Source: an uncultured Rhodospirillales bacterium
GTDB lineage: Bacteria; Pseudomonadota; Alphaproteobacteria; RF32; CAG-239
NCBI GenBank assembly: GCA_902778645.1
Contig: CACYYO010000002.1
Coordinates: forward strand, 1,511-65,510
DNA length: 64,000 nt
Direction: 5' to 3'
Under the pieces are notes generated by a model. That model was not told the origin of the DNA. It was given only the letters and a program-made list of their open reading frames with translations, and ran no database searches. Of this stretch, positions 5,918 through 39,463 are shown in pieces. The position numbers and the translations under genes were made by a program. The first letter of the stretch is position 1. Each line of letters starts with the position of its first letter.

Positions 5918-6466
5918 ATGAAAAAGCCGCAAAGAACACGAAAATATTTTGCCCCGCAATCCGATAATACCGAGAGAAAATGCGATCACGAGGGCTGCCA
6001 AAAGGCAGGAATTTATCGTGCCCCGAAGGATAAAAGACTGAGAGAATATTATTGGTTTTGCTTGGAACATGTCCAAGAATATAACGCCAAATGGAATTAT
6101 TACGGGGATGCCGATACAGAAGAAGAATTAAATAACGCAAAAGCAAAAATGCACTTTAATGGTGGAAAGTCAAAAATCAAATACCGCTTTGGCGCAAAAT
6201 TTAAGGATTCTTTTGGTTTTTTCAGCGAATATGCCGAAGAATTTACATCTGCCGCACCGGAAACATTTTTTACCGCAGAGGAACGCGGGTGGATTCGCAC
6301 AATGGAGATGGATTTCAACGATTTGAGTATTGCCACACTCAAAAAACAATATAAAAAACTCGTCAAAAAATATCATCCCGATATTAATCGGGATGATAAA
6401 GATGCTGAAGAAAAGTTCAAGCAATTAACCAATGCCTATAGTGCCCTGCTGGCTAAACTGTCCTGA
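5918..6466 (+). CDS. J-domain co-chaperone-like protein with an N-terminal Cys/His zinc-binding region
   Basis: C-terminal J domain with the HPD motif (LKKQYKKLVKKYHPDINRDDKDAEEKFKQLTNAY). N-terminal CDHEGC...C..H cluster. Confidence 0.75.
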   Translation: MKKPQRTRKYFAPQSDNTERKCDHEGCQKAGIYRAPKDKRLREYYWFCLEHVQEYNAKWNYYGDADTEEELNNAKAKMHFNGGKSKIKYRFGAKFKDSFGFFSEYAEEFTSAAPETFFTAEERGWIRTMEMDFNDLSIATLKKQYKKLVKKYHPDINRDDKDAEEKFKQLTNAYSALLAKLS

Positions 6467-7292
6467 TGTTTTGTTCCTGCCGCCGCTGAAGAAGTTTCTT
6501 AAAACTGACTTTTGGCTCGGATACCCGATGCCTTTTTTTGCGGTGATGAGAATTTGGTTTTCTGCCGGTCTTTTTTAAGAGAAGTTGTGCTACCTTTTGG
6601 TCATCATTTTTGGTATTAGTAATATTAATAACATCATTAATTTTCATTCCTTGAACAGCGGAAAATCCGCCGATTTTTTGCAATCTTTTAATGCCTCTCA
6701 TCAAATCTTTTATCTTTTGATCATCAAGTTTTGCAAAACCGATCTTTATATCCGGCGCAACATTGTGTTTGATGGCCATTTCAAAAGTCTCTTTTCCCCA
6801 ACCGTTATTCTGCATATTTTCTGCAACATCTTGAGGAGACAAATTTCCAAGACCTGCTTTTTGGGCTAAACGATTTATCCGTGAAAGAGCGAACAGCTTA
6901 GAAGTATTTTGCTGATTTTGAATGTTTTGAGATGTTTGTTTTTGGTTTATAATCTGTTTTTCTTTTTCATTTAACCCCTGAAAAAGAGAGGTGTCTGACG
7001 CCTTGGTGTTATCCAAAAACAGTAAAGAATTATCAAAAACAAAACTATATTCTTCTTCATCTTCGTCGTCGTCATCTAAAGCTTCTTTTATTTTTTTTCG
7101 CATTTTTTTGAGATGAGAGCTGAAAGGCGCATTAATTTGCGAAGCAACGGAAGAAGACTTTGCGTTGGATTCTTTTGCTTTAATCTGTGCATATACATTT
7201 TGTTGCGCATCGAGATGCCGAGAGAGTCGTTCTTTCTTCCCGAAACTTTTTTTCTTCCACTCAATATTCGGATTCGTGGTTTCATTATCCAT
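6453..7292 (-). CDS. Hypothetical protein with an acidic stretch (DDDDEDEEE) and a Q/N-rich low-complexity region
   Basis: 279-aa ORF convergent with the J-domain gene, overlapping it by 14 nt. No domain recognised by eye. Confidence 0.45.
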   Translation of the reverse strand: MDNETTNPNIEWKKKSFGKKERLSRHLDAQQNVYAQIKAKESNAKSSSVASQINAPFSSHLKKMRKKIKEALDDDDEDEEEYSFVFDNSLLFLDNTKASDTSLFQGLNEKEKQIINQKQTSQNIQNQQNTSKLFALSRINRLAQKAGLGNLSPQDVAENMQNNGWGKETFEMAIKHNVAPDIKIGFAKLDDQKIKDLMRGIKRLQKIGGFSAVQGMKINDVINITNTKNDDQKVAQLLLKKTGRKPNSHHRKKRHRVSEPKVSFKKLLQRRQEQNIRTV

Positions 7293-7328: not shown

Positions 7329-9053
7329 CTACTCTGCTTCTTTGCCAACATAACCGGATTGCTTGACAAGAGAGCAAACAACCATAATCGAATCATCAGA
7401 CAATAAAACAGAAAGAACATCTATCCTGATACCATCACTCCTTGTTAAACGGAAAGATTTTGTGCTTGCACTCATAAGGTGCGCAAGAATGTCCTCTTTG
7501 AGATCTTGCCAATTTTCAACATGAGCAAAGAAACGCTGTTGGTCATCTAAAACCTCGGCAATACTTGGCTCCTTTCTCAAAAACAACTCATCGGATTGCC
7601 AGAGCTTGAGATAGGCCTGATTAAATGCTTTTAAACGACCGTTAGAACCAAAGATAATGACGGCATCAAACAAATTATTAAGGATTTCATCTTGTACCTG
7701 TAATAAAGCGTTGTAAGCCTGTTGGGTAGCTAATCGGTCAGAAACATCTTCAAAAGCAAAAACAAGCCCCCCCATCGGATAAGGAGACCGCACGCGGCGA
7801 ATAGTGTTTCCGTTTGGCAGATGCAACAAATCTTCCTTAGGTTCAAGGATAGAGGTAAAGGCTTTTAATTCATCATTTTTATATTGTCTGAAATCAGGAA
7901 CTTCCGGCAACAATCTTTTTTCTCTAATGTTTTCAAGAAAAGAAGAGTATGATGGTGCCGATTCCAACCATTTACTTTCCTGCTTCCACAAAGAAACAAA
8001 AGCCTTGTTGTAAAAAGAAAGTTCGCCATGACTGTCGAAAACGGCAAAAGCAGTTCCCAGTGTGCCCAGAATTTCCAAATGAGCATTTTGATGAAGTTTC
8101 AAATCGCGCTTCAGATGATCAAGCTCGGTAATTTCGATTAATGAGCCGACAGTCCATATTTTATCAAGATACCCTTGCAGATGAAAAGGAGATTCGCAAA
8201 CCTCAAAAGAGCAGTGCTGTCCGTTTTTTATAAGGTTTTCATCTTGTTTTTGGGGGCGATTCAGGGCTTGAGCCTGAGCCGCCAAGGTTTTCGCAACACT
8301 TTTTCCGCCGACACTTAACAGTTCTATTTGTTGGCGAATGACATCGCTTTTACTGACGTTTTTAGTAAAATCAAGATATTTTTTGTTAATGACGACCAAA
8401 TTTTGTTGTTCATCGCGCAACCATGCCGGATAAGGGAGATTATCAATAATATCTTCTAATTGTTGAAAGCGCGTTTCCGCAACCTTTTTCTCATGCTCTA
8501 AATAAGAGATTCTTTGAACCTCCTCGCTGACATCACGAAACCAAATCATATCGCAATAGAGATTACCGTCGGTAGCATTAATCCTTGCACCGGCCAGATG
8601 CAGTTGCTTCGTACCGTTTTTTAGGCTGAAATTTTCATCGAATGAGACACCGTCTTCCCTCAGCAAAGCAAGATATTTTTGAATTTTCAGAACATCATCT
8701 TTGGCAAAACACTTCAAAACATCATTAAAAGAAGAAGACGTGCCTTGCGGTAAATTTAAGATAACCGCCAAACGCCGAGAACAGCGCTCTTTAACGTAAT
8801 TTTGAGGGTCATTAACTTTCTCGTCAGGGTAAATAAAAGCAAAATACCCGTCTTTTGAGGCGTAAAGCGTTTCAGCATAACGCTCACGATCACGGTTAAT
8901 AAAATAATTTTTCTGCGTCAGTTTTAGAACTCTGATTTGCGAATAAACAAGCATACTCAGCAATACAACAAAAACCGCAAATAGGATATACCATAATTCC
9001 GGTGCGGCATAAAACATGTCCAATAAGAGTTCTTTATTCATTTTTTTTGCCAC
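7329..9053 (-). CDS. Membrane-anchored multi-PAS sensor protein. No HisKA or HATPase kinase domain is present.
   Basis: N-terminal TM helix (LWYILFAVFVVLLSMLVY) followed by repeated PAS-like modules (..LDKIWTVGSLIEITELD.., ..FDAVIIFGSNGRLKAFNQAYLKLW..). The ORF ends without a kinase core. Confidence 0.55.
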   Translation of the reverse strand: MAKKMNKELLLDMFYAAPELWYILFAVFVVLLSMLVYSQIRVLKLTQKNYFINRDRERYAETLYASKDGYFAFIYPDEKVNDPQNYVKERCSRRLAVILNLPQGTSSSFNDVLKCFAKDDVLKIQKYLALLREDGVSFDENFSLKNGTKQLHLAGARINATDGNLYCDMIWFRDVSEEVQRISYLEHEKKVAETRFQQLEDIIDNLPYPAWLRDEQQNLVVINKKYLDFTKNVSKSDVIRQQIELLSVGGKSVAKTLAAQAQALNRPQKQDENLIKNGQHCSFEVCESPFHLQGYLDKIWTVGSLIEITELDHLKRDLKLHQNAHLEILGTLGTAFAVFDSHGELSFYNKAFVSLWKQESKWLESAPSYSSFLENIREKRLLPEVPDFRQYKNDELKAFTSILEPKEDLLHLPNGNTIRRVRSPYPMGGLVFAFEDVSDRLATQQAYNALLQVQDEILNNLFDAVIIFGSNGRLKAFNQAYLKLWQSDELFLRKEPSIAEVLDDQQRFFAHVENWQDLKEDILAHLMSASTKSFRLTRSDGIRIDVLSVLLSDDSIMVVCSLVKQSGYVGKEAE

Positions 9054-12198: not shown

Positions 12199-13651
12199 GA
12201 AAACGAAGATATTTTTGCAATTGCGCGGAGAGGTCATCATCTTCGGTTTCTTTTGCGAAGTCGAGGGCTGTCTGTATATTTTTTCTTGCCGTTTCTTTTT
12301 GACCGCACCGAAACTCAACTAATCCCATGTTTGCATAATCAATGGCAAGGGCATTAAGGCGTACGCCTCTTTGTTCCAAATCAAGAGATTGCTGGAACAG
12401 CCCTTTTGCCCTCTGTAAATCTTTCTGCCGCATATAAAGAATACCGAGCAGGTTATAGGCATTTGCTAGGTGAAAACAACCGCAATCTTTTTGCCCGTTG
12501 GTAATAATCTGGCGCAAAATCTTCTCTGTCTCAGTATCATTGCCAAGCCTGAATAAGGATTGAGCTTGCAGATATAAACTATCCAAAAATCCGGAGATAT
12601 TGTCTGTTTTTTTGTAAAGGGAGGAGGCTTGCAAAGCTTTTTGGGCGGCTTTTGCAAAAACTTCCTGAGCCCAAAAGCAATTTGCCTCCAGTTCGGTAGC
12701 AAAAGCGATTCCGACAGTATTTTTATATTGAGAATGAATTTTTTTAGCTTGTCGCAAAGCGTTCGTTGCTTTTTTGTAATCTTTTTTCAGCAAAGACAGA
12801 AGAGCTTGTTGGTTAAAAATCTCTGCCAACGGAACAAAGCGTTGATTGTCTCTAAAAATCTGAGCAGAACGACAAAGATAATCTTCTGCCTCTTCAAAAC
12901 GTTCTTCACCGATCATCAAAATTCCCAAATGACCTAAAGTTTGCGCTTCACCATCACTATATTTGAGGTTTCGGTAGATTTTCAAGGCGCTTAAAAACAA
13001 AGTTTCCGCCACATCACCCATAAAACTGATTCTATATATTGTTCCCAAATGCAAATAAGTTTGCGCTTCTTCATAGAAACATTTTTGCCGATGGAGCAGA
13101 GCTGCAACGTCATAAAATTGGCGAGAAGCATACTCCAAATCTCCGTTTTTGAGGGCAACCTTACCCAAATGCAGAAGATAATGAGCCCGAAGATATGGAG
13201 AAAGATTTTTCTCTGATACCTTATCCCAAAACAAAGAGGCAAGAGAGGTGTTTTCAGTAACCTCATGGAGCCAAGCAAGCCAAACAGCCAATTCGGAGTT
13301 TTTTGGATTCTTTTTATACAATTTTGTGAGTGAAGGAATAACCTTACCGGGTGCATCAAAAGCTTTCAACAACAAAGAAAGGGATTTTCTGCTTTTTTTT
13401 AAGAGAGCGGAGACTTGCTGTATATTCGCTGACAAAAGAGCAGATTCAAGTTTTTTTGATCGTTGCCGTAAAGCACATTTAATTGATTCCCTGACAACAT
13501 ATTCTGAGAAAAAGAGAGGATGATTGGCAGCAATTTTCCGCAAAGTATGTTTGCAAAAAAAATCAAACTTCAGACGTCGCATAAAAAGCGGAAAAATAAA
13601 AATAATTCCGCAAAGCGATAAAAAAACAATGATGTAAAAAAGATAATTCAT
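12188..13651 (-). CDS. TPR repeat protein with an N-terminal TM anchor
   Basis: 487 aa. Multiple TPR-like units (..AQTYLHLGTIYRISFMGDVAETLFLSALKIYRNL.., ..ANAYNLLGILYMRQKDLQRAKGLFQQSLDLEQ..). Confidence 0.65.
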   Translation of the reverse strand: MNYLFYIIVFLSLCGIIFIFPLFMRRLKFDFFCKHTLRKIAANHPLFFSEYVVRESIKCALRQRSKKLESALLSANIQQVSALLKKSRKSLSLLLKAFDAPGKVIPSLTKLYKKNPKNSELAVWLAWLHEVTENTSLASLFWDKVSEKNLSPYLRAHYLLHLGKVALKNGDLEYASRQFYDVAALLHRQKCFYEEAQTYLHLGTIYRISFMGDVAETLFLSALKIYRNLKYSDGEAQTLGHLGILMIGEERFEEAEDYLCRSAQIFRDNQRFVPLAEIFNQQALLSLLKKDYKKATNALRQAKKIHSQYKNTVGIAFATELEANCFWAQEVFAKAAQKALQASSLYKKTDNISGFLDSLYLQAQSLFRLGNDTETEKILRQIITNGQKDCGCFHLANAYNLLGILYMRQKDLQRAKGLFQQSLDLEQRGVRLNALAIDYANMGLVEFRCGQKETARKNIQTALDFAKETEDDDLSAQLQKYLRFLSN

Positions 13652-24852: not shown

Positions 24853-26541
24853 ATGGCAGAAGAAAAAACAGATAATCAATATGTTGTTTTGGCGCGTAAG
24901 TATCGTCCCCAAAATTTTGAGGATTTGCTCGGGCAAGATGCGCTTGTGCAAACATTAACTAATGCCATCAAAAACAATCGCCTTCATCACGCATATATTT
25001 TGACCGGCATCCGCGGTGTCGGTAAGACGACAACCGCACGACTGATTGCCAAAGCTTTGAACTGTACGGGTTTGGATGGTAAAGGCGGACCGACAATTCA
25101 CCCTTGCGGTGTTTGTGAGAACTGTAAAGCCATTGCCGCTGGTCGCCATATTGATGTTTTGGAGCTTGATGCTGCCTCTCGCACGGGTGTCGACGACATG
25201 CGCGAGATTTTAGATGGTGTCCGCTATAAACCGACCAACGCTCGTTATAAAATCTACATCATCGACGAAGTTCATATGCTCTCTAAAAGTGCGTTTAATG
25301 CTCTTTTGAAGACACTTGAGGAACCGCCTTCACATGTCAAATTTATTTTTGCGACGACGGAAATTCGCAAAGTGCCGGTGACGGTTCTGTCCCGTTGTCA
25401 ACGATTTGATTTGCAAAGGTTGGGGATTGAAGATCTGCTCAAGCTGTTTCATAAGATTGCCGAGGCTGAAAACCTCAAAGCTGACGAGGAAGCTCTTCAT
25501 ATGATTGCCAAAGCCGCTGACGGCTCGGCCCGTGATGGTCTCTCCCTTTTGGATCAGGCTATTTCTTTGGGTGCCGGAACGGTTAAAGCGGATATTGTTA
25601 AAAATATGATTGGTCTGGCAGATGTCACGCAAACTTTTGACCTTTTCGAAAATTTGATTAACGGAGATACAAAGCAGGTCATTATAACCCTGCAGGAGCA
25701 GTATAGAAACGGGGCAGATCCGTTGTCTCTTCTCAAAGATTTAATTTCTTTGACGCACCTGATTGCCAAAGTTAAATTAGTTCCGAGTTTTATAAACGAC
25801 AGTTCCGTCAGCGAGGCGGAGAAAGAGTTTTGCGCTAAAGTTAAAGATAAAATCAGCATTGCGATTCTTTCTAAAATATGGCAAATGATGATGAAAGGAA
25901 TCAGCGAATTACAGTTAGCTCCGATTCAAATTGATGCATTGGAGATGATTTTGATTCGCGTCGCTTATTCGGCATCGTTGCCAACCCCTTATGAGGTTTT
26001 GGAAGACGTAAAAAAAAACTCTAATTTAAATATTACCCCTAATCTGAGTCGCCGGTCGCAAGATCAAACACCGACACAACCGGCACCTGCAGAAAAAAAA
26101 ACATCATCTCAAACGCTTAATACCATAGAAGAAATGGTTTCTTTTTTGGAGCAAAAGAAGTACCCACTGCTTGTGTATTCACTAAAACACGATGTTTGCA
26201 TCACAGAATTTCAGCAAGGTTTGATAAAAATGACGATTGCGCCGGCACTGCACCCTGAGTTTATTCAAAACCTTGTCAAGACTTTGCGAGAAACAACCTC
26301 TCAAACATGGGAAGTTGAGATTGTCAAAGGTCCATTAGGTGAAACAATAGCGGATAAAGAAGCCGCCGCCCTTGCCGAACAGCAACGAGATGTTTTAGAA
26401 TACCCCTTAGTTCGGGCAATTATGGCCGAATTCAAGGGTGCAAAAATAGAAAGTTTGATTCGCCGTGTTCAACAATCAGAGGACGACGAGGCAGAAGATC
26501 AACCCACCACCGACATGATAGAAGAAGAGGAAACAGAATAA
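24853..26541 (+). CDS. dnaX: DNA polymerase III subunit gamma/tau
   Basis: Walker A GIRGVGKTTTARLIAKALNC, Zn module CGVCENC, and SRC and sensor motifs. Confidence 0.95.
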   Translation: MAEEKTDNQYVVLARKYRPQNFEDLLGQDALVQTLTNAIKNNRLHHAYILTGIRGVGKTTTARLIAKALNCTGLDGKGGPTIHPCGVCENCKAIAAGRHIDVLELDAASRTGVDDMREILDGVRYKPTNARYKIYIIDEVHMLSKSAFNALLKTLEEPPSHVKFIFATTEIRKVPVTVLSRCQRFDLQRLGIEDLLKLFHKIAEAENLKADEEALHMIAKAADGSARDGLSLLDQAISLGAGTVKADIVKNMIGLADVTQTFDLFENLINGDTKQVIITLQEQYRNGADPLSLLKDLISLTHLIAKVKLVPSFINDSSVSEAEKEFCAKVKDKISIAILSKIWQMMMKGISELQLAPIQIDALEMILIRVAYSASLPTPYEVLEDVKKNSNLNITPNLSRRSQDQTPTQPAPAEKKTSSQTLNTIEEMVSFLEQKKYPLLVYSLKHDVCITEFQQGLIKMTIAPALHPEFIQNLVKTLRETTSQTWEVEIVKGPLGETIADKEAAALAEQQRDVLEYPLVRAIMAEFKGAKIESLIRRVQQSEDDEAEDQPTTDMIEEEETE

Positions 26542-26861: not shown

Positions 26862-27140
26862 GGAAACAGCCTCTCTGTCATCCTGAGCGAACACCTCATT
26901 TACCGTCATCCTGAGGAGTTCCTCTCTTTTATGTCATCCTGAGGAGTTCCGAAGGAACGACGTCAGGATCTCCGAACGCCAGTTCGGTAAAAAAGGAATC
27001 ATTATTATGGTAGGACTTCGTCCTAAGATCTTGACGTCACTACGTTCCTCAAGATGACAGGACATAATGAAGTCCCCTGAGCGAGAGAACCGAGCGTCAG
27101 GATCTCCTTTACAGCAGTTCGGTAAACCCTTATAAAAGGA
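26862..27140. repeat. Array of family B palindromic elements (gtcatcctgag(c/g)...ttccgaaggaacgacgtcaggatctcc...gttcggtaaa)
   Basis: Several nested or tandem copies, with hairpins gttcc-gaa-ggaac and gacgtc. A near-identical copy lies at 33677-33760. The distal end supplies the SD (aaaaggaaac) for the GIY-YIG gene. Confidence 0.6.
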
Positions 27141-27147
27141 AACATTA

Positions 27148-27435
27148 ATGAAATTAATGTATACATACATAATAACCAATAAAAAGTATGGAACCTTATA
27201 TATAGGGGTAACAAATAACTTAAGGCGTCGAATATATGAACATAAACAAAAAATCGTAAAAGGGTTTAGTTCTCGCTACAATTTGAATAGGTTAGTATAT
27301 TATGAAATTTTCGAAGATGAAATCAATGCGATAGAAAGAGAAAAGCAATTAAAACTATTTAAAAGACAAAAGAAAATAGAACTAATAAACGACTTTAATA
27401 CTAACTGGGATGATTTGTATAATAATATCATTTAG
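27148..27435 (+). CDS. GIY-YIG nuclease family protein (UPF0213-like, small standalone)
   Basis: MKLMYTYIITNKKYGTLYIGVTNNLRRRIYEHKQK has the GIY-YIG core with conserved Arg and Glu. Confidence 0.8.
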   Translation: MKLMYTYIITNKKYGTLYIGVTNNLRRRIYEHKQKIVKGFSSRYNLNRLVYYEIFEDEINAIEREKQLKLFKRQKKIELINDFNTNWDDLYNNII

Positions 27436-28466: not shown

Positions 28467-28829
28467 CTAAAATTTAACCCGGGGGCCCTTTGAAGTATCA
28501 ATAGTATCAATACCAGTGCAACCACGCTCTTCATTCCAAGTCCCTCCTTGCTTTTTACACGATTCTTCTGTGTGGGCACGTGGAGTTTCAGAGTCAAGCC
28601 ATTCTTTATCATGTATCTGTTCCTCTACACTACTATAACATTTACAGTCATTGTTAACCCATGAACAGTGAGCTCCTTTTGAAACACAATCTTTTTTCGC
28701 CTGATCTTCCGCCTGCTTAGCTGCCCGCTTTGCGGCTGCTTCAGCCTCGAGTTGTTCCTTAGAGACGCAGACACCATTTCGTTTGACTTCTCCGGCAGCT
28801 TCATCACATCCGCTAGCCCCCATCTTCAT
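28467..28829 (-). pseudogene. Cys-rich 120-aa module. It is in frame with, and probably a detached C-terminal part of, the upstream giant VirB2-like gene.
   Basis: Same minus-strand frame as ORF 28977-32273. It is separated from that ORF by TAA (28977-79), 37 sense codons (EVQVQISSAAGSGSGAGSSQQGLSQTHIDCINVRQGK), TAG (28863-65) and 11 sense codons. Confidence 0.45.
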
Positions 28830-28976
28830 ATTGGTGCAATGTCCGGTAGCTTCGTCGCCGACCTATTTACCTTGGCGAACATTTATACAATCGATATGGG
28901 TTTGTGACAAACCTTGCTGAGAACTGCCTGCTCCGCTACCGGAACCCGCAGCAGACGATATCTGAACTTGAACTTC

Positions 28977-31900
28977 TTATTTCTTGCCTTCTTCCGTCTT
29001 TTTGGTATCAGTACATTTGCCTGAAATCTCATCAAATACGCCGCCCTGAGCAGCACACGCCTGTTGAGCAGCGGCACTTATCTGGTTTCTCTTGTTTTCA
29101 TTACTCTGGAAATCAAAATTGCCGGATGATTGTTGATACCTTGCTTCATCATACCCTTCGGTTACGCCAGTTAAAACTCCAAACAGAGTCCCCATGGCCT
29201 GTGCGCCATCACCCAATCCGAGCATACCACCCAAGCCTTCTCCTTCATTACGACCGGCCTCTGCCATAGCAGCGGTATTGCTGGCACCTGCAGCAGCCTC
29301 TGCTACCTTTTCCATACCGGTCAAAATCGTAGAACCGCCGCCTTTTCCGTCATTGTTCATCCAGTTATTAAAACCTGTTTGCTCGCTTTTAACCTGCTGC
29401 TCCAAATTTGCCAAAGCATTCTTTTCATTCTCGCTGCAAACCGAGGTCGAACATTTTTTCAGCAATTCTTCATATGTCTGGTTCAATACGCCGCGATATG
29501 CTTCTTGAGCCCTTGATGACCCCATATCTTGTACATTATTAGAAATTGCGCTGCCTGCTCCGGCCAAAATATTAGCCTCTACAGCCGTATTCCCGACCAT
29601 TGTTGCAAGAGCAGTTGTTGCATCTGTGACGTTAGAGAAGAAGTCACTGGCGCCGTCTTTTGCCGCCTTATAATTTGCTTCCGCCTGATCAACAACGGCT
29701 TGAGCGCTTTCCTCTCCGGATCTTGCATACGCCAAGTCACGCTCAGCCTGAGCAACCAGATTATCCCCTTCTCTTGTCGCCTGATCCAAAGCATACTGTG
29801 CTTGGTTTACCAGATTATCCCCTTCTCTTGTTGCCCGATCCAAAGCATATTGTGCTTGTGTGACTGCATTATTGGCATTATTATAATCAGCTTTTGCCGT
29901 ATTAAGTGCCTGATTGGCCTGAGATAAAAGATATTCGTCATCAGTAATATCTTTGCGCAGGTTTTCCATATCAGCACGAATCTCTTCTTCGGTTTTGTTG
30001 CCGTACTTGTTTGTGAGGTCCTGATATTCCTGACGATATTGTTTGGCATCCGCTTCTGCTTGCGCCATTTGCTCTTTAAGCTTGGCAATTTGCGCCGCCT
30101 CTGCCGGACGATTAGGGTCTAACTGATTAATTTGCTCTTGTAATCTGGCAACTTCATCATCTTTGGCTTTAGCTGCATCTAATAAATCATCTTTTTTGAG
30201 ATATTTATTCATATCTTCCAATTCTTTGGCGTGTTGAGCGCGTTGCGCTTGCAAGTTGTCAATATTTTCTTGGGCCTGATTAACAGCAGCCAATTTTTCT
30301 TCAGCCTCTTTCTTTGCAGCATCTAATTTATCTTGCTGTTCTTTGACAAGAGCATCTCTTTGTTTCTTCGCTTCATCAACACCTTTTTGTGCCTCATCAA
30401 TAAGATTATCTCTCTCTCTCTGTGCTGCGTCTAAAGCTGCCTGTTTTTCAGCAACATTGGCTTGCGCCTGATTCAAAATCTCGTTAGCTGTATTCAAATC
30501 CTGCTGTGCGGCACGGACGTAATCATTTGTGCCATTCCAAGCATCGCTAAATGCTTTCGCGGCGTCAATAGTGCCTTCCACGTAGTCTTTTACTGATTGA
30601 ACGCCCACAGCAGTATTACGAATAATGTTAAGACCATTCTTTATTGCATCAACGCCATCCATGAAGCTCCACCCTTTACCATCTGCCGCCGCTTTTAAGT
30701 CTGCCATATTAACATCCGGACATAAATTAGGGTTATTGCTGCATTCTTGAATCATTTGTTCCAATTCTTGCGGAGACATTGATGAGTAGGACGACGATCC
30801 GCCTGATCCGCTTGTAAAGTACTGCGCATGGTTACCATTAGGCAAGAAGTCTCCATATTGCAATGTAGACCCGTCATTATAAACGATTTCCTCAATCAAA
30901 GCGGTTGTCATAGAGAGAATAAATAGACCGATACCGATATTGGCCAACTGCTTAAAATTAATTTTACCGATAATTGCGCTATAAGCAAAGGCAATCATTC
31001 CGAAACCGGCTAAAATATAGACAATAGAACGTAAATCAGCGACAATAAGTGTAATTCGGCAAGCAAGGTATTGAAAGATACCAAACCCGCCACTTTGGGA
31101 CATATTGTCTTTAGCCTCTTTACACGTCGGCTTTGCCAGTGCGGCATTTACCTGTTTTTGAATATCAGTACTAGTTCCTGCTTTATCTCCATCTCCGATT
31201 CCTCCAGTAGAATCTGTATTTAAACCGTAGCCACAAGTTCCTTCTTCAATACAAGAATATTCACCGGAACGATTTAGAGCTTCTTGATAAGCTTTTGCTT
31301 CTGCCTGACATTCAGCAGACCCTTTTTCAAATTGACAATCATCATAAGCTTTTTTAGCCTGATCAAGTTTCTGCTGAGCTTGTCGTGCTTCTGCTGCTTT
31401 TGCCGCTGCCACACGATCTTCTCGAGCCTTTATAATACATTCTGAGATTGGTCCACCACATTTTTCAAAAGCAGCATGCTCTTCAGCTGTCGCATCAACA
31501 GAAAAAGTACAAGCTCTAAGAGTGGTACTATAAACCATTCCACCGGAACAAGAATTTTGGTTAACTTGTAAAGCCGTAGAATCAGCATTATTTTGCGCAG
31601 TTGCATTTTTATTATTAGCTTCAGTAGCCGCCTTTGCTTTTTTTCCGGCTTTTTTTGCTGCGTTTTGATAAGCATTATAAAGGTCCTTCAATCGAGAACA
31701 AACAGCATCATTCGGATTTTGTTTACAAGTTGCAATGGCGGCATCATATGCGGCCTCAGCTTCTTGTGCTGCTTTCTGTGCTGCCTCATTTTCTGCATTT
31801 GCTTTATCCGCTTTTTCTTGAGCGCTGTTAGCTTTTTTACTGGCTTTATCAGCATTACTATTGTCTTTTTTACATTGCGAAAGAGCAGATTTTGCATTAC

Positions 31901-32273
31901 GGAGCTGCGTTGCCATGCCTTCTTGACATTGCTTTAAAGCTGTTTGAGCGTTTGTTAAAGCGATACTCACATGCTTTGAAGCATCCATGCCACCGGAAGT
32001 ACATTTTTTATACTCCGCTTTAATGGTGTTATATACATCACAAACAGAATCCAACTTATCTTGAGCCGAAGTAACAGCTGCCTGTTGCGTTTGACAATTA
32101 CCATAAGCATTATAAGCAGAGACAGCACTCTGCGCATTTGCACAATTACCATAAGCCTCATCCCTGGTAATATCTTCAATATCAGTTTTCGCATTAGCTT
32201 CATTAACAGACAACAAAAATCCTAAGCACAGTAGGAATGAAACACCTCTCATCGCTTTATTAATCATTTTCAT
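28977..32273 (-). CDS. Giant secreted coiled-coil protein with an embedded VirB2/TrbC-like (T4SS pilin) double-TM hairpin
   Basis: Signal peptide MKMINKAMRGVSFLLCLGFLLSVNEANA. Cys-rich N-terminal domain and A/Q/K-rich coiled coils. The core LRSIVYILAGFGMIAFAYSAIIGKINFKQLANIGIGLFILSMTTALIEEIV aligns with the two small paralogs downstream. Internal duplicate NQAQYALD(R/Q)ATREGDNLV. Confidence 0.6.
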   Translation of the reverse strand: MKMINKAMRGVSFLLCLGFLLSVNEANAKTDIEDITRDEAYGNCANAQSAVSAYNAYGNCQTQQAAVTSAQDKLDSVCDVYNTIKAEYKKCTSGGMDASKHVSIALTNAQTALKQCQEGMATQLRNAKSALSQCKKDNSNADKASKKANSAQEKADKANAENEAAQKAAQEAEAAYDAAIATCKQNPNDAVCSRLKDLYNAYQNAAKKAGKKAKAATEANNKNATAQNNADSTALQVNQNSCSGGMVYSTTLRACTFSVDATAEEHAAFEKCGGPISECIIKAREDRVAAAKAAEARQAQQKLDQAKKAYDDCQFEKGSAECQAEAKAYQEALNRSGEYSCIEEGTCGYGLNTDSTGGIGDGDKAGTSTDIQKQVNAALAKPTCKEAKDNMSQSGGFGIFQYLACRITLIVADLRSIVYILAGFGMIAFAYSAIIGKINFKQLANIGIGLFILSMTTALIEEIVYNDGSTLQYGDFLPNGNHAQYFTSGSGGSSSYSSMSPQELEQMIQECSNNPNLCPDVNMADLKAAADGKGWSFMDGVDAIKNGLNIIRNTAVGVQSVKDYVEGTIDAAKAFSDAWNGTNDYVRAAQQDLNTANEILNQAQANVAEKQAALDAAQRERDNLIDEAQKGVDEAKKQRDALVKEQQDKLDAAKKEAEEKLAAVNQAQENIDNLQAQRAQHAKELEDMNKYLKKDDLLDAAKAKDDEVARLQEQINQLDPNRPAEAAQIAKLKEQMAQAEADAKQYRQEYQDLTNKYGNKTEEEIRADMENLRKDITDDEYLLSQANQALNTAKADYNNANNAVTQAQYALDRATREGDNLVNQAQYALDQATREGDNLVAQAERDLAYARSGEESAQAVVDQAEANYKAAKDGASDFFSNVTDATTALATMVGNTAVEANILAGAGSAISNNVQDMGSSRAQEAYRGVLNQTYEELLKKCSTSVCSENEKNALANLEQQVKSEQTGFNNWMNNDGKGGGSTILTGMEKVAEAAAGASNTAAMAEAGRNEGEGLGGMLGLGDGAQAMGTLFGVLTGVTEGYDEARYQQSSGNFDFQSNENKRNQISAAAQQACAAQGGVFDEISGKCTDTKKTEEGKK

Positions 32274-32350
32274 GGCACATCCTCCTAATAGTCCTTAGAA
32301 TTTTATATTAATAATTTCCCGTCTTTGTTCTTTTTTTTGCCCCTTTATAA

Positions 32351-32391
32351 TTCCTCCCCTTTTCAATAGGAGAGGGTCAGGAGGGGGTCTG
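32351..32391. promoter_or_regulatory. Family A palindromic element (ttcctccccttttcaataggagagggtcaggagggggt) in the promoter region of the giant VirB2-like gene
   Basis: Shares the CCTCCCCT-N-AGGGGAGG-N-GGAGGGG architecture with 16665-16706 and 33642-33685. Confidence 0.45.
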
Positions 32392-32403
32392 ATAACACCT
32401 TGT

Positions 32404-32925
32404 TTATCCGCCTGTCTTCAAGCTGTCGGTTATCATATCTGTCGTAATAACGGTATCCTCAACCATGTAGTTAATAATCGCCGCTGTTGCCGCAATTACA
32501 AACAACCCGATCAGAATAGCCGTCAACCATTTATAATTAATGTTTCCGAAAATGGAGCCGATAACCACCGCAATAATCCCAAAACCGGAAACCGCATAAA
32601 TAATCTCTCGCAAGCCGGTAAAGATTTTGCCGCCATGCGCCGCCAAATCACCAAATAAGGGACCCGAACTCCCACTCCCATGACCAAAATGAATAACGTT
32701 GGACATTCCTGAAGCAGCTGTTCCTACCACTTTTTTCGCTGCCTCCACAGCTTCAGGACTAGGATCTTCCGCCCACGAGTTCGTTGCAAATAAAATTGAA
32801 GAACACACAAACACCGCCAAGCTGGCAACAACCAATTTCTTAAAATTTATGTGCAACATTCTAAATATTTCCCTAAAAGAAACAAAAGGAAGGCGTTGTG
32901 AGCAATTTGTAAATAAATTTTTCAT
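32404..32925 (-). CDS. VirB2/TrbC-like T4SS pilin family protein (paralog 2, 173 aa)
   Basis: Signal peptide (LAVFVCSSILFATNSWA), then LREIIYAVSGFGIIAVVIGSIFGNINYKWLTAILIGLFVIAATAAIINYMV, two hydrophobic helices separated by a K/W loop. Confidence 0.6.
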   Translation of the reverse strand: MKNLFTNCSQRLPFVSFREIFRMLHINFKKLVVASLAVFVCSSILFATNSWAEDPSPEAVEAAKKVVGTAASGMSNVIHFGHGSGSSGPLFGDLAAHGGKIFTGLREIIYAVSGFGIIAVVIGSIFGNINYKWLTAILIGLFVIAATAAIINYMVEDTVITTDMITDSLKTGG

Positions 32926-32964: not shown

Positions 32965-33327
32965 CTATTTTGTTGTACTGCTCTGGAAGGTATCACCCAT
33001 TGTACCTTCACCAGTACCGGCATAACCACTGGCACCTGTTGCGTATTCAACGATAGCACCGGCTGCCGCCAACAGGGCTAAACCGACTGCCAAGCCGGCA
33101 AACCATCCCCATTTAACCTTACCGATAATCGCTTGGTAAGCAATACCAACCAAACCGAAACCACCGATAACGAAGGTAATGGTTTTGACATGTTGGAACA
33201 CATTCATTGCTTTTCTCTCTGCAACCGTCATTAACGGTGAAGCTTGCGCAAAAGCATCAAGTGATACCAATGTCAAAACAAATGCCCAAGAGCAAATTGT
33301 CCAAATATTTTTTTTCAAGAAACGCAT
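32965..33327 (-). CDS. VirB2/TrbC-like T4SS pilin family protein (paralog 1, 120 aa)
   Basis: Signal peptide ending AFAQA, then ITFVIGGFGLVGIAYQAIIGKVKWGWFAGLAVGLALLAAAGAIVEYATG. Same architecture as Agrobacterium VirB2 (a GxFG helix, a K/W loop, a G-rich helix). Confidence 0.65.
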   Translation of the reverse strand: MRFLKKNIWTICSWAFVLTLVSLDAFAQASPLMTVAERKAMNVFQHVKTITFVIGGFGLVGIAYQAIIGKVKWGWFAGLAVGLALLAAAGAIVEYATGASGYAGTGEGTMGDTFQSSTTK

Positions 33328-33629: not shown

Positions 33630-33760
33630 TCTTTTTCTTCTGTCACTCCTCCCCTTGGTTTCAAGGGGAGGTTGGAAGGGGTTTTGTCATCCTGAGGAGT
33701 TCCGAAGGAACGACGTCAGGATCTCCTTTACGTTAGTTCGGCAAAAAAGGAATCATTACA
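33630..33760. repeat. Composite of a family A palindrome (33642-33685) and a family B element (33677-33760), lying between divergent virB2-like and porin genes
   Basis: tcactcctccccttggtttcaaggggaggttggaaggggtttt, followed by gtcatcctgaggagttccgaaggaacgacgtcaggatctcctttacgttagttcggcaaaaaaggaatcatt. The latter is near-identical to 26920-27000. Confidence 0.6.
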
Positions 33761-35539: not shown

Positions 35540-38500
35540 CTATTGTATCTCTTTTACTTTCGTAAAGCGTTGATCTTGTGCCGCATTGCGCTTTGCAATA
35601 CCTCTTCTCTTTTCTGCCGCTTTTGTGGGCTCAAAGTTATAGTGTTCGGTGTCGTTTTGTAGTTCTTGAGCCGTCGGAAGTTTTTTCTTACCGCCGACAA
35701 AATCATTCATGTCGACGACAGCTTCCCGTTCGGCACTGTTCTTCTGTTCACGATTTGGCTGAGTAGCCTTAAACGTGCCATCGCTTACTAAACAGTGTTC
35801 TGCAAAGTTTGCAAAGTCTTCCGGCAATATGGTTTGCAAGAGGTTATGGCGAGAAATATTACTGCTCCATAATCCCTGACGAGCACTGGTGACAACATCA
35901 GATAATCCGCGAACATGCGCTTCCTGTGCAGATTCGTAATCGGCATCGAGCTTTAACTTTCCTTGTTTTCCACCTGATGTAAACGGAATCTTATCACTAT
36001 GCCCGGCAACGGCTTGGTCTATCATTTCTAACTGCCCTTTTAAATAATCCAACTTGGGCATATCCGGTGATGTAGACAGACGTCTTTCATCTAAGCGATT
36101 GCAGAAATGATTAAACAGTTTTTCTTTATTTTCATTTTCCGGTCCATAGATACAGACGAACAATTCCTTGCTGATAGTCATTTCTTCAGGTTCATTAAGA
36201 TTTTCTAAGGCTAAAGCCGGCTTCTTTTCCGGGAGAGTAATTTTATCCTTACCTGTAAGTTCATCAACTGCTTGATGAAATACGGAAGAATAATCAGGCT
36301 TGTTGACTGTTGTATTTGGTGTTTGGTACTCTTTTTTCTTCTTAAGCCTTTTCATAATCTCTTTAGCTTCTTCCGGAGTTGGTAAATATCCGGCAATCGG
36401 CTCTAAATTTTCGAGCTGCTTCGGCTCTTTCTGCTTAACCGGCTGTTTTGGCTTAGCTTCTTCGGCTTCTTGTTGTCTCCTCTTGGCCAATACTTCTTCT
36501 GTTTCCAAGAGCGCAACCGGCTGTTCTGGCTCTTTCGGCTTAACCGGCTGTTTTGGCTCTTTCGGCTTAACAGGCTGCGTCTGATCTACCGGCGTTTTAT
36601 CCACCGGTGTCTTGTCCACCGGTGTCTGATCTTCTTTTTCATTCTTCTTGGCATTCGCTCCAACACGTTCTGCCAAAGCACGATTTTCTCTCTGATTATC
36701 ATGAACCATGGTGAAAGGCAGAATATCTACACCCTCTTCGGTATGCTGGGTTATCCGCTGATACAGTTCTTCTTGCCCCGGATGATCGTGCGGTTCATAA
36801 CCGACATCAGCATCTTTATTATAAGAATCAGGATTCTTTCCATCACCCAAGCTGTCAAAATCCTTAATTTTACCCATATCATTAACGTCGCCCTCATGCT
36901 GTCCACCAACATGATTCTCGACAATTTGCAGAACTTGAGCATCTGCTTCAGTCAGGGGTTCTCCGCTAAGAAGTTTATGGTATGTATCTTGATAAGTTGT
37001 TGTATGACCGTTTTCGTCCGTATAGCTCAAGACTTCCCCAATCGGCTGACCGTTATCGGCAAGAGCATCAGCATTTGGTGCTAAAATATTTGCCTGGTAA
37101 AGTTTGTAAAGAAGCATGTCGCTGTTAGAAACAAACGCACCATTGACATAGCTGTTCATTTCATGGTGTGTTTCAGCCAACTTATCTAAAGAAGCAACAG
37201 CATCATTATATGCCGAGGTATTCTCATTATAAGATTTATCCGTCCAGTCATGACCTAAATACTCACTGTAGCGTGTTCCGCCGGTATGAGGATCATTGGG
37301 GTCTAATACTTGCTCCATACGATGCTTGGCAAAATCAAGTTCTTCAGCGGTATAATCACGCGTTGTAAACCCGTCTTTACCTTCTTGAACAAGAAAAGCA
37401 CCTTCATCAGTTTTATCACAATATTCTAAGGTATAACCCTGTTTTGTCAGTTCTTCTTCGGGCAAAGCTCGCAAGTTATCAAATTCACTTCTGTCTGTAA
37501 CAACACTGTCATGAGATGTTGTCCCCAACCCTGTGGCTTGCATACCAAGCCCGAGAGCATAACTGGTTCCCAGAGCTGTTCCGGTTGATAATGTAGCAGA
37601 AAAAGCAGCTACAGAAGCTGATTTCCACCAGCTTTCGCCTTTTTCTCTTTGACGGCGGAAGGTTTTAACAATGTTCGTCAGATTACCGACAGCCATTGCA
37701 CCAAATCCCAAACCTTTCGCTGCATCTTTGGCCGCAGCACCACCCAGCAGAGCGGCACCAGTTGCTAGTGCAGAAGTGGCAATTTCACCAACATGGTCTT
37801 TTAAGAATCCTTTTAAAGTAAGTTTACGATTATTTTTCTTCGCTTCTTCTTTGAGGCGCTTATACTTTGTTGATAAACGGAAAATTGCCTGCCCGCCGAC
37901 ATAAGCACCATAAGCAATATTACCAAAGGGAATAAGGCTTGATCCGTAACGGACAAGTTGGTTCAGCGCTTGTCTGCCCATATTATGCTTCATAGCTTTT
38001 ATTTGTGTTTTAGCAATCGTATAATAAGGATCAAAACGTTTAATGGCGGTATTATCAAAGCCTCTAATGCTTTCTGCCATATTCCCGACTGCATTTGTCT
38101 TCTTACCGATTTTCGTTCCCAAACGATTCAAATAGCCGAATGCATCATTCGTATAGCGAGCAAAGTTTGCAACTTGTACCTTATTATCTACCTTATAGTT
38201 TCCACCGGTACCATTAATAACGGCATCATAAGCGGCTTGCCCGGCAGCTTTAGCCTGTTGCTCACTCATCGGTTGCGGAATATAAGAAGGATTAGCCTGC
38301 CTTTTTTGTTCTTCCTGAGCCAAATGTTTAGCAGCCTCGTTAGCTGTCAACATTGCTGTTAATTCAGCGGCATAAGCTATATTAATCTCTTCTTGAATGG
38401 CGGCATCTAATTCTTCACCCTTTTTGCCCTTGTTTTTAACAGCCGCATTCATCGTTGCTTTTTTGATAACAGCCTCATTAAAGGAGTTGATGAAGTTGTC

Positions 38501-39463
38501 ACGTTGCGTATTATCTACAAATTCAATATTATCCCAAACCTGAGCCAAATCTTCCGGCGGATTTTTGATTTTTCTTTCAGCCTCATTTTCTTTAGCGAGT
38601 TCTTCGTTGACTCGTTTTTGAGCTCTCAAATACGTTTCGTTAATTTCATAGGCATCATCATGTGTTAAGCCCGTAAAACCATTAGCGTCATCATAAATAT
38701 TGATTTCTATTTCAAGTTTTTCACGACAGATTTCGATATTTTGCTTCAAGGCGTCATCATCAGGATTCTTTTCCTCAACATAATCATACATTAACCTTGC
38801 GCCGTCATAAACATCGGCAATATTTGTCTGGTCAACAGTGGTTTCACTATTGGCATATTTGTTTACCTTAGAAACCATGACCTCCATTAATGCCGCCCTT
38901 GAAGCCTGCATTTCTGCTTTGATGGCATCAGTGCTGGCATGATTTTCAGCTTCCTCCAACCATCGAGAGGTATCAACCAAACGTCTCGGCGGATAATATT
39001 CAAGAATCTCCTGTTTCAGGGCTTTATCTCTTTGGTTGAAATCATTTCGCTCATCTGCATTTAAGTTGGCTTTTGCCAAATTAATGGCATCTTGTTGAGC
39101 ATCATGATCTAAAGAAGCAAAATTTTCCGGCAGTTTATTCATTTGCGCTAAAATAGCACGGTCAATACCTACACGAATTGGAGCCCCGGAATTTAAGAAA
39201 TCAGTATTCTCGCCGCTGATAAGCTGCTGCCATTCATCAGAAGTAAAGTTAGTTTCAATGCGCTGAGAGTCATTTTGGTTTTGATTCTCGTTTTCACGCT
39301 CCCTTTTGGCGCGTTCTTCGGCAATCATTTGTGCCCTGAATTCATTTTTATTTTGTGCTGCTTCATAGGCGGCGCTATCTTCTCTTGAGGCAGTATTACC
39401 TGTATATTTTTCATTAAACCATGCTTCTAATGCATCATTAGTTATATCAGCCATTGCCGTCAC
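35540..39463 (-). CDS. Giant hypothetical protein of 1307 aa, effector-like: acidic coiled-coil N-terminus, central hydrophobic segments, tandem PVDKT / PVKPKEP repeats and a basic C-terminus
   Basis: No signal peptide (MTAMADITNDALEAWF...). Repeats QTPVDKTPVDKTPVDQTQPVKPKEPKQPVKPKEPEQPV. C-terminal tail KAAEKRRGIAKRNAAQDQRFTKVKEIQ. Confidence 0.6.
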   Translation of the reverse strand: MTAMADITNDALEAWFNEKYTGNTASREDSAAYEAAQNKNEFRAQMIAEERAKRERENENQNQNDSQRIETNFTSDEWQQLISGENTDFLNSGAPIRVGIDRAILAQMNKLPENFASLDHDAQQDAINLAKANLNADERNDFNQRDKALKQEILEYYPPRRLVDTSRWLEEAENHASTDAIKAEMQASRAALMEVMVSKVNKYANSETTVDQTNIADVYDGARLMYDYVEEKNPDDDALKQNIEICREKLEIEINIYDDANGFTGLTHDDAYEINETYLRAQKRVNEELAKENEAERKIKNPPEDLAQVWDNIEFVDNTQRDNFINSFNEAVIKKATMNAAVKNKGKKGEELDAAIQEEINIAYAAELTAMLTANEAAKHLAQEEQKRQANPSYIPQPMSEQQAKAAGQAAYDAVINGTGGNYKVDNKVQVANFARYTNDAFGYLNRLGTKIGKKTNAVGNMAESIRGFDNTAIKRFDPYYTIAKTQIKAMKHNMGRQALNQLVRYGSSLIPFGNIAYGAYVGGQAIFRLSTKYKRLKEEAKKNNRKLTLKGFLKDHVGEIATSALATGAALLGGAAAKDAAKGLGFGAMAVGNLTNIVKTFRRQREKGESWWKSASVAAFSATLSTGTALGTSYALGLGMQATGLGTTSHDSVVTDRSEFDNLRALPEEELTKQGYTLEYCDKTDEGAFLVQEGKDGFTTRDYTAEELDFAKHRMEQVLDPNDPHTGGTRYSEYLGHDWTDKSYNENTSAYNDAVASLDKLAETHHEMNSYVNGAFVSNSDMLLYKLYQANILAPNADALADNGQPIGEVLSYTDENGHTTTYQDTYHKLLSGEPLTEADAQVLQIVENHVGGQHEGDVNDMGKIKDFDSLGDGKNPDSYNKDADVGYEPHDHPGQEELYQRITQHTEEGVDILPFTMVHDNQRENRALAERVGANAKKNEKEDQTPVDKTPVDKTPVDQTQPVKPKEPKQPVKPKEPEQPVALLETEEVLAKRRQQEAEEAKPKQPVKQKEPKQLENLEPIAGYLPTPEEAKEIMKRLKKKKEYQTPNTTVNKPDYSSVFHQAVDELTGKDKITLPEKKPALALENLNEPEEMTISKELFVCIYGPENENKEKLFNHFCNRLDERRLSTSPDMPKLDYLKGQLEMIDQAVAGHSDKIPFTSGGKQGKLKLDADYESAQEAHVRGLSDVVTSARQGLWSSNISRHNLLQTILPEDFANFAEHCLVSDGTFKATQPNREQKNSAEREAVVDMNDFVGGKKKLPTAQELQNDTEHYNFEPTKAAEKRRGIAKRNAAQDQRFTKVKEIQ

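Follow-up and report, generated by a model that had tools for sequence, protein, structure and literature searches.

The stretch of DNA discussed here, hereafter the window, comprises 64,000 nucleotides (nt) of an uncultured Rhodospirillales bacterium (contig CACYYO010000002.1, positions 1,511 to 65,510 of the forward strand); it is alphaproteobacterial, carries dnaA, lon, dnaX, ybaB and recR, and the contigs nearly identical to it derive from rumen metagenome assemblies. Its minus strand harbors an open reading frame (ORF) of 1098 codons for a giant VirB2-like protein, and past the terminator of this ORF the same frame runs through a second stop codon into an annotated hypothetical protein of 120 amino acids (aa). 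This raises the question as to whether the two ORFs are pieces of a single gene and, if so, what the two stop codons represent. In our reading, recent and real nonsense mutations have probably taken off a variable C-terminal module, an ordinary gene truncation and not a case of recoding. The features involved are as follows.

28980-32273, minus strand: giant ORF in its present form, 1098 codons, with an identical protein (P0001) in public data
30879-31085, minus strand: VirB2/TrbC-like hydrophobic helical hairpin, aa 397-465 (...IVYILAGFGMIAFAYSAIIGKINFKQLANIGIGLFILSMTT...)
28977-28979, minus strand: first nonsense codon, TAA, opening a variable linker and lying 11 residues past the first Cys loop
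28866-28976, minus strand: probable relic linker of 37 codons, a Gly/Ser linker and the first half of a Cys loop (HIDCINVRQGK)
28863-28865, minus strand: second nonsense codon, TAG, which as judged from the orthologue was TGG (Trp) before a single G>A transition; it splits the Cys loop C1129...C1146
28467-28862, minus strand: what probably remains of the C-terminal Cys-rich module, namely 11 codons and then the 120-aa ORF called as a gene

Re-derived on the minus strand, the coordinates and codon counts that the preliminary description of this locus had given for 28467-28979 are all correct. The giant ORF opens with an ATG at 32273 and runs to 28980 before its terminator, TAA 28977-28979; in the same frame there follow 37 sense codons (EVQVQISSAAGSGSGAGSSQQGLSQTHIDCINVRQGK), TAG 28863-28865, 11 further sense codons (VGDEATGHCTN) and the 120-aa ORF, which extends from an ATG at 28829 to a TAG at 28467-28469. 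The whole reading frame thus holds 1266 sense codons and two internal stops. The K/A/E-rich helix ascribed to the C-terminal module is indeed present (KEQLEAEAAAKRAAKQAEDQAKKD), and a short Cys-loop motif, C..G.[WYF]...C, has one copy in the N-terminal domain (at aa 242) and two near the C-terminus (aa 1073 and 1239). These three intact copies compare with 0.29 in composition shuffles; a fourth copy is interrupted by the TAG.

Taken by itself, the continuity of the frame is not beyond chance. Co-directional neighboring genes are expected to share a frame in one case out of three, a run of about 49 "intergenic" codons containing just one stop has a probability of roughly 0.3 at the local composition, and the combined chance of frame and stop spacing is estimated at about 0.1. 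Six other ORFs of the window have at most three in-frame stops within the next 169 codons; the three of them that were examined (7329-9053, 27148-27435 and 32965-33327) merely precede the next gene in frame. The continuity is accepted as real because of homology, not because of the reading frame.

A protein search returns the identical 1098-aa protein and 82 homologues, all from metagenomes or metagenome-assembled genomes (MAGs); homologues that bear a source name are labeled "Alphaproteobacteria bacterium", and the loci found in the genome_contigs collection carry the same label or "uncultured Azospirillum"/Azospirillaceae. The closest homologue, P0002 (1351 aa, 56% identity overall), is encoded on contig L002 by one ORF that is uninterrupted across both stop positions. 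L002 has the gene order of the window (1328-aa ORF, Trans_reg_C, Porin_4, TrbC, small ORF, giant, RecR, GIY-YIG, YbaB, DnaX), and its flanking housekeeping genes are 92.6% identical to those of the window at the nucleotide level. Around the TAG, the window reads CGC CAA GGT AAA TAG GTC GGC GAC and L002 reads CGC CAA GGT CAA TGG GTG GGT GAT. The Trp at this site is kept in all four homologues that have the module (RQGQW in P0002, RGGRW in P0003 and P0004, RGGKW in P0007), the last three of which also carry it in frame. Comparison at the sequence level therefore establishes the ancestral continuity of the gene and identifies the TAG as a TGG sense codon changed by a point substitution that kept the frame. 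At the TAA site, L002 has GGG/CAG within a variable linker, which in P0003, P0004 and P0007 is enlarged to about 90 Thr/Ser/Gly-rich residues.

The same picture holds for the wider family: the related loci read, ten in number (L002, L010-L018), all have an unbroken ORF followed by stop-rich non-coding sequence or another gene, so that the comparison with orthologues proposed in the preliminary description yields continuous genes throughout, and neither stop is conserved in any of the ten, L002 having sense codons at both positions. They include an intact 1051-aa allele on L016, a contig of the same species as the window (flanks 96-97.7% identical at the nucleotide level). Natural short forms also exist: P0028 stops immediately past the equivalent Cys loop and P0005 a little farther on, and those encoded by L010 and L011 are cut off sooner. 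A scan of the JGI metagenome DNA with the back-translated VGDEATGHCTNMKMG pattern gives 0 matches, a scan of the JGI metagenomes for the giant family finds one distant locus and no closer alleles, and the genome_contigs scan finds six distant family loci, the window's own species being absent. A word-index protein search is insensitive, as it misses P0002 despite shared exact 16-residue words; its negatives (nothing for the C-terminal 391 aa with the stops written as X, and only the 120-aa ORF itself for the 169-aa tail) are not used as evidence.

Selection on the tail was gauged by the ratio of nonsynonymous to synonymous substitution rates (omega) between window and L002 with the Nei-Gojobori method (NG86). 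Omega is 0.20 over the last 218 codons before the TAA and 0.21 over the 81 alignable codons past it, which amounts to equal purifying selection on both sides; within the latter, it is 0.48 in the linker between the two stops and 0.11 over the 43 codons past the TAG. Amino-acid identity to P0002 behaves likewise, at 80% upstream of the TAA and 78% downstream (27 of 37 residues in the linker, 36 of 43 after the TAG). Omega and identity thus being nearly equal on either side of the TAA, the tail must have remained coding sequence of this one gene through most of the interval since window and L002 diverged. When the differences are polarised by eye (alignment A1, with P0003, P0004 and P0007 as outgroups), about one amino-acid change, the stop excluded, is specific to the window and about three are specific to P0002; no long neutral decay of the tail is apparent, though the numbers are tiny. 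The unbroken orthologue, the conserved Trp at the TAG and the equal selection around the TAA thus sustain the core claim of the preliminary description, that the spacer and the 120-aa ORF belong to the giant ORF, and favor the first of the options it had listed, namely that a C-terminal domain was recently truncated or pseudogenised.

When the 120-aa ORF is compared exhaustively by phmmer with 1.84 billion representatives, the only hits are itself and two spurious ones, P0090 and P0091, which are repeat proteins unrelated to the module and were rejected as homologues; there is no standalone homologue among these representatives. No Shine-Dalgarno motif precedes the ATG at 28829, no promoter-like and no terminator-like site accompanies the ORF, and no signal peptide is found, its N-terminus (MKMGASGCDEAAGE) reading without a hydrophobic signal sequence. 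The ATG itself corresponds to an ancestral internal Met (NMKMG in the orthologue), and the ORF begins inside the module because the TAG cuts a Cys loop. A conserved stop followed by a conserved, independently expressed small gene, the arrangement that the preliminary description had set against its own view, is therefore not what lies here: no stop is conserved, and standalone homologue and Shine-Dalgarno motif are both lacking. That gene fission has made the 120-aa ORF an independent, functional small gene would agree with its annotation by gene callers, with the identical product on record and with its ATG start and intact frame of 120 codons; a start at a former internal Met, a domain of 8 Cys devoid of Shine-Dalgarno motif, promoter-like site and signal peptide, and the lack of any relative standing alone among the 1.84 billion representatives make such a fission barely credible. 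On these comparative grounds, the ORF is best described as a leftover of the giant protein's tail and not as a gene.

Are the two codons then read as stops? Reassignment is excluded, since TAA and TAG are in normal use as terminators in the window: among its 45 ORFs, 30 end with TAA and 11 with TAG (41 of 45 together), the remaining 4 ending with TGA, and the ORFs ended by TAA or TAG include dnaX, recR, ybaB, lon and dnaA. Leaky termination or suppression, in which the 1098-aa form would predominate and a full-length form with the Cys-rich module would be rare, would account for the kept frame and the preserved downstream sequence, and a module destined for the periplasm would need the upstream signal peptide. 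Such readthrough, another of the options in the preliminary description, is nonetheless very improbable. Neither stop is conserved in the ten related loci; the first is TAA, which is the strongest terminator in bacteria and the commonest in the window; two readthrough events in succession would leave a negligible yield; and the TAG replaces a conserved Trp, which no known natural suppressor restores. The folding of the RNA around the stops is not significant (z=-1.6, 12 of 200 shuffles fold as well), no Rfam match is obtained, and the only tRNA of the window is a tRNA-Arg, with no suppressor tRNA. 

It may alternatively be supposed that the stops arose as errors of sequencing, consensus or assembly, or belong to a sub-population only, most cells having an intact ORF of about 1268 codons. 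A tail otherwise perfectly kept in frame, with an omega of about 0.2, would fit this supposition, as would the representation of the exact window sequence by a single allele in public data and a strain-variable locus that breaks assemblies in three other samples, where mixed populations are likely. The independent assembly of Logan, however, has a contig (ERR3224597_101936) that is 100% identical over 6189 nt and reproduces both stops, and it is improbable that a short-read consensus should contain a pair of unrelated substitution errors within 114 nt when the contig is otherwise clean; error, the last option of the preliminary description, is thus disfavored and we regard it as unlikely, even though the Logan contig possibly stems from the same reads. 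Two nonsense codons also hint that selection has slackened over part of the gene or more, and the whole locus could be a dying pseudogene whose 1098-aa ORF is non-functional too. Against this stand the 1098 open codons behind a strong Shine-Dalgarno motif, a hairpin 92% identical to that of P0002, an omega of 0.15-0.20 in the conserved parts and the existence of natural short forms, and there is but a slim chance that the decay reaches so far. A slim chance may equally be given to the truncation being functional variation, in which the giant would be displayed on the surface or on a pilus, its terminal modules would be swapped by recombination between co-existing alleles, and nonsense "capping" would switch a module off, possibly with rare readthrough or reversion. 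It is consistent with this that the segment which fails to assemble in three other samples has its edge (28712) within the relic module and not at the TAA.

Truncation by recent nonsense mutations, the reading that we prefer, would have proceeded as follows. The ancestral giant gene was one ORF of about 1270 codons with a variable disulfide-rich module at its C-terminus, and two point substitutions in the window lineage would have produced the TAG from the TGG of the conserved Trp and the TAA in the linker just upstream. Translation would now halt at the TAA to give the 1098-aa protein, which would lack the last 170 or so residues and retain everything from the signal peptide and N-terminal domain through the pilin-like hairpin and coiled coil to the first Cys loop; the product would end at a domain boundary, because the TAA opens the linker after this loop. 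As natural family members end at or before the same point, it is likely still functional, and the spacer and the annotated 120-aa ORF would be an untranslated relic yet to decay. We infer that the stops are real in the cells and that the truncation is recent. Several points weigh against this account. The Logan contig may share the reads of the window, in which case it excludes an artefact of the assembler and not a problem of consensus or library; the variability of the linker prevents reconstruction of the codon that the TAA replaced; the occurrence of two nonsense codons in an otherwise well-kept tail of 170 codons free of indels is a little surprising; and the preservation of the tail would be equally expected from occasional continued translation.

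In terms of architecture, the giant protein consists of a signal peptide, a Cys-containing N-terminal domain (about 370 aa), the helical hairpin, a long coiled coil, a Gly-rich region and Cys loops, the first of which is CAAQGGVFDEISGKC; the strong Shine-Dalgarno motif upstream of the ORF is taggaggatgtgccATG. The hairpin is the sole strongly conserved part of the family, and the invariant columns of alignment A2 fall there. It matches the adjacent, genuine TrbC protein with E=7e-8 (BLASTP) and the Pfam TrbC family (PF04956) with E=0.008 and 16.8 bits, a score under the gathering cut-off of 27.9 bits (16-17 bits across scans); the full-length giant protein has no Pfam match. TrbC is the only family that matches all 12 scanned segments (11 hairpins and the adjacent genuine VirB2) at E<=0.1, the best value, 7.4e-8, probably coming from the adjacent VirB2. 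The AlphaFold2 model of the hairpin shows two helices with a 4-residue loop between them at moderate confidence (mean predicted local distance difference test score, pLDDT, 63). Neither a profile search of PDB sequences with the hairpin nor a Foldseek search of the PDB with its model gives any match, and these null results say nothing on VirB2 membership, the fold being too simple. The giant ORF combines the features of a pilin (signal peptide, two-helix hydrophobic hairpin, short basic loop and homology to a genuine VirB2). The label "VirB2-like" used in the preliminary description thus stands insofar as the hairpin is homologous to the adjacent VirB2 and is matched in every member scanned; with weak support, below the Pfam gathering score, it is a fair description and not a demonstrated family membership. 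The giant ORF was also considered as a paralogue of its 1307-aa neighbor (35540-39463), which it is not.

The gene (window 28713-32477; L016:7001-10156; L002:7381-11436) is hypervariable, and its alleles are mosaic. The L016 allele, of the same species by flank identity, shares only about 52% protein identity with the window giant. The N-terminal domain of the window protein is 54% identical to that of P0003 and 28% to that of P0002, whereas for the C-terminal part the figures are 45% and 80%, respectively. An essentially identical strain (3 true single-nucleotide polymorphisms in 7.4 kb) is found in three other samples (ERZ1060774, ERZ28614839 and ERZ27280242), and its contigs end at either side of the gene.

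28712-28713, no strand: right edge of the non-assembling segment, where contigs L007 and L009 (two samples) end inside the relic module
32478-32494, no strand: left edge of the non-assembling segment, where contigs L003, L004 and L005 (three samples) end inside the 173-aa ORF

No repeat within the window accounts for the contig ends at 28712 and 32478-32494, and the simplest reading is that alleles co-exist in these three samples. In one of the contigs, L007, dnaX appears split (L007:4937-4982, corresponding to window 26163-26178); this is a scaffold run of N and no mutation.

The giant ORF is the last of a three-gene cassette of rising size (120, 173 and 1098 aa: genuine TrbC, faintly TrbC-like and giant) that is kept in L002, L016 and L017, and a strong Shine-Dalgarno motif of AGGAG type precedes all three genes. 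The first two are the following.

32965-33327, minus strand: TrbC/VirB2 pilin gene, first of the cassette (Pfam PF04956, E=2.5e-9, 37.7 bits where the cut-off is 27.9)
32404-32925, minus strand: 173-aa ORF, second of the cassette, faintly TrbC-like (Pfam TrbC E=1), its L017 counterpart being marked "TrbC (weak)"

The 173-aa ORF is syntenic in L002, L016 and L017. No VirB4, VirB6, VirB8-11 or VirD4 is recognised among the 27 larger window ORFs scanned. Two direct copies of a palindromic intergenic repeat (TGTCATCCTGAGGAGTTCCGAAGGAACGACGTCAGGATCTCC...AAAAAGGAATCATTA; window 26929-27004 and 33682-33758, L002:5770-6069 and 13017-13093), which has no Rfam match, bracket the block of GIY-YIG, recR, giant and VirB2 genes, and the copy at 33682-33758 reaches into the ribosome-binding region of the porin gene (33773). 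In both the window and L002, the 95-aa GIY-YIG ORF (27148-27435, plus strand) separates ybaB from recR; it is missing from the same-species contig L016 and adjoins the TrbC gene in L017. It resembles a small mobile insertion linked to the palindromic repeat. Elsewhere in the window, a PAS-domain protein of 574 aa without a recognisable output domain (7329-9053, minus strand) is followed 36 nt downstream, in the same frame, by a 279-aa ORF with no Pfam match (6453-7292, minus strand). This pair was considered as a second split gene and rejected, there being no domain evidence for a former unity.

In annotations, the entry at 28467-28829, a "hypothetical protein" of 120 aa, should become a pseudo or truncated 3' part of the giant gene, and should not count as a new gene or family. 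The locus provides a small, clean case of domain loss caught soon after the event in a family with fast-changing outer domains. The truncation itself is ordinary, and the giant VirB2-like family is the more interesting lead, with a pilin-like hairpin inside a protein of about 1000 aa that is mosaic within one species, uncharacterised and so far seen in gut and rumen alphaproteobacterial MAGs only. 

Among known systems, the locus resembles split genes and partial pseudogenes in having a one-ORF orthologue, a break by point substitution without change of frame and a remnant mis-annotated as a small hypothetical gene; it differs from them in that only an accessory C-terminal module is lost, the remaining ORF matching natural short forms and being probably functional. 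Programmed readthrough is exemplified by the A1 protein of phage Q-beta and by selenocysteine and pyrrolysine recoding. With these, the window shares a coding-like extension past an in-frame stop, but its stops are unconserved and two in number, the first is TAA, and no recoding signal is found. In comparison with TrbC/VirB2 pilins (PF04956), the giant protein has the signal peptide, the two hydrophobic helices and the short basic loop (GKINFK, and GKVKW in the neighboring VirB2); it is about ten times longer and its Pfam score is sub-threshold, and this likeness, drawn from sequence, does not imply polymerisation. Anaplasma phagocytophilum has diversified VirB2 paralogues and giant repetitive VirB6 proteins (PMC3556328), and the window is similar in that VirB2-like genes lie side by side and a very large, strongly strain-variable envelope protein appears related to type IV secretion systems. 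The host of the window is, in contrast, a rumen or gut alphaproteobacterium seen in metagenome assemblies only, and the scan of 27 larger ORFs of the window brings up no further type IV secretion genes; and, unlike in A. phagocytophilum (PMC3556328), it is the giant itself that bears the VirB2-like hairpin, set between large N- and C-terminal domains.

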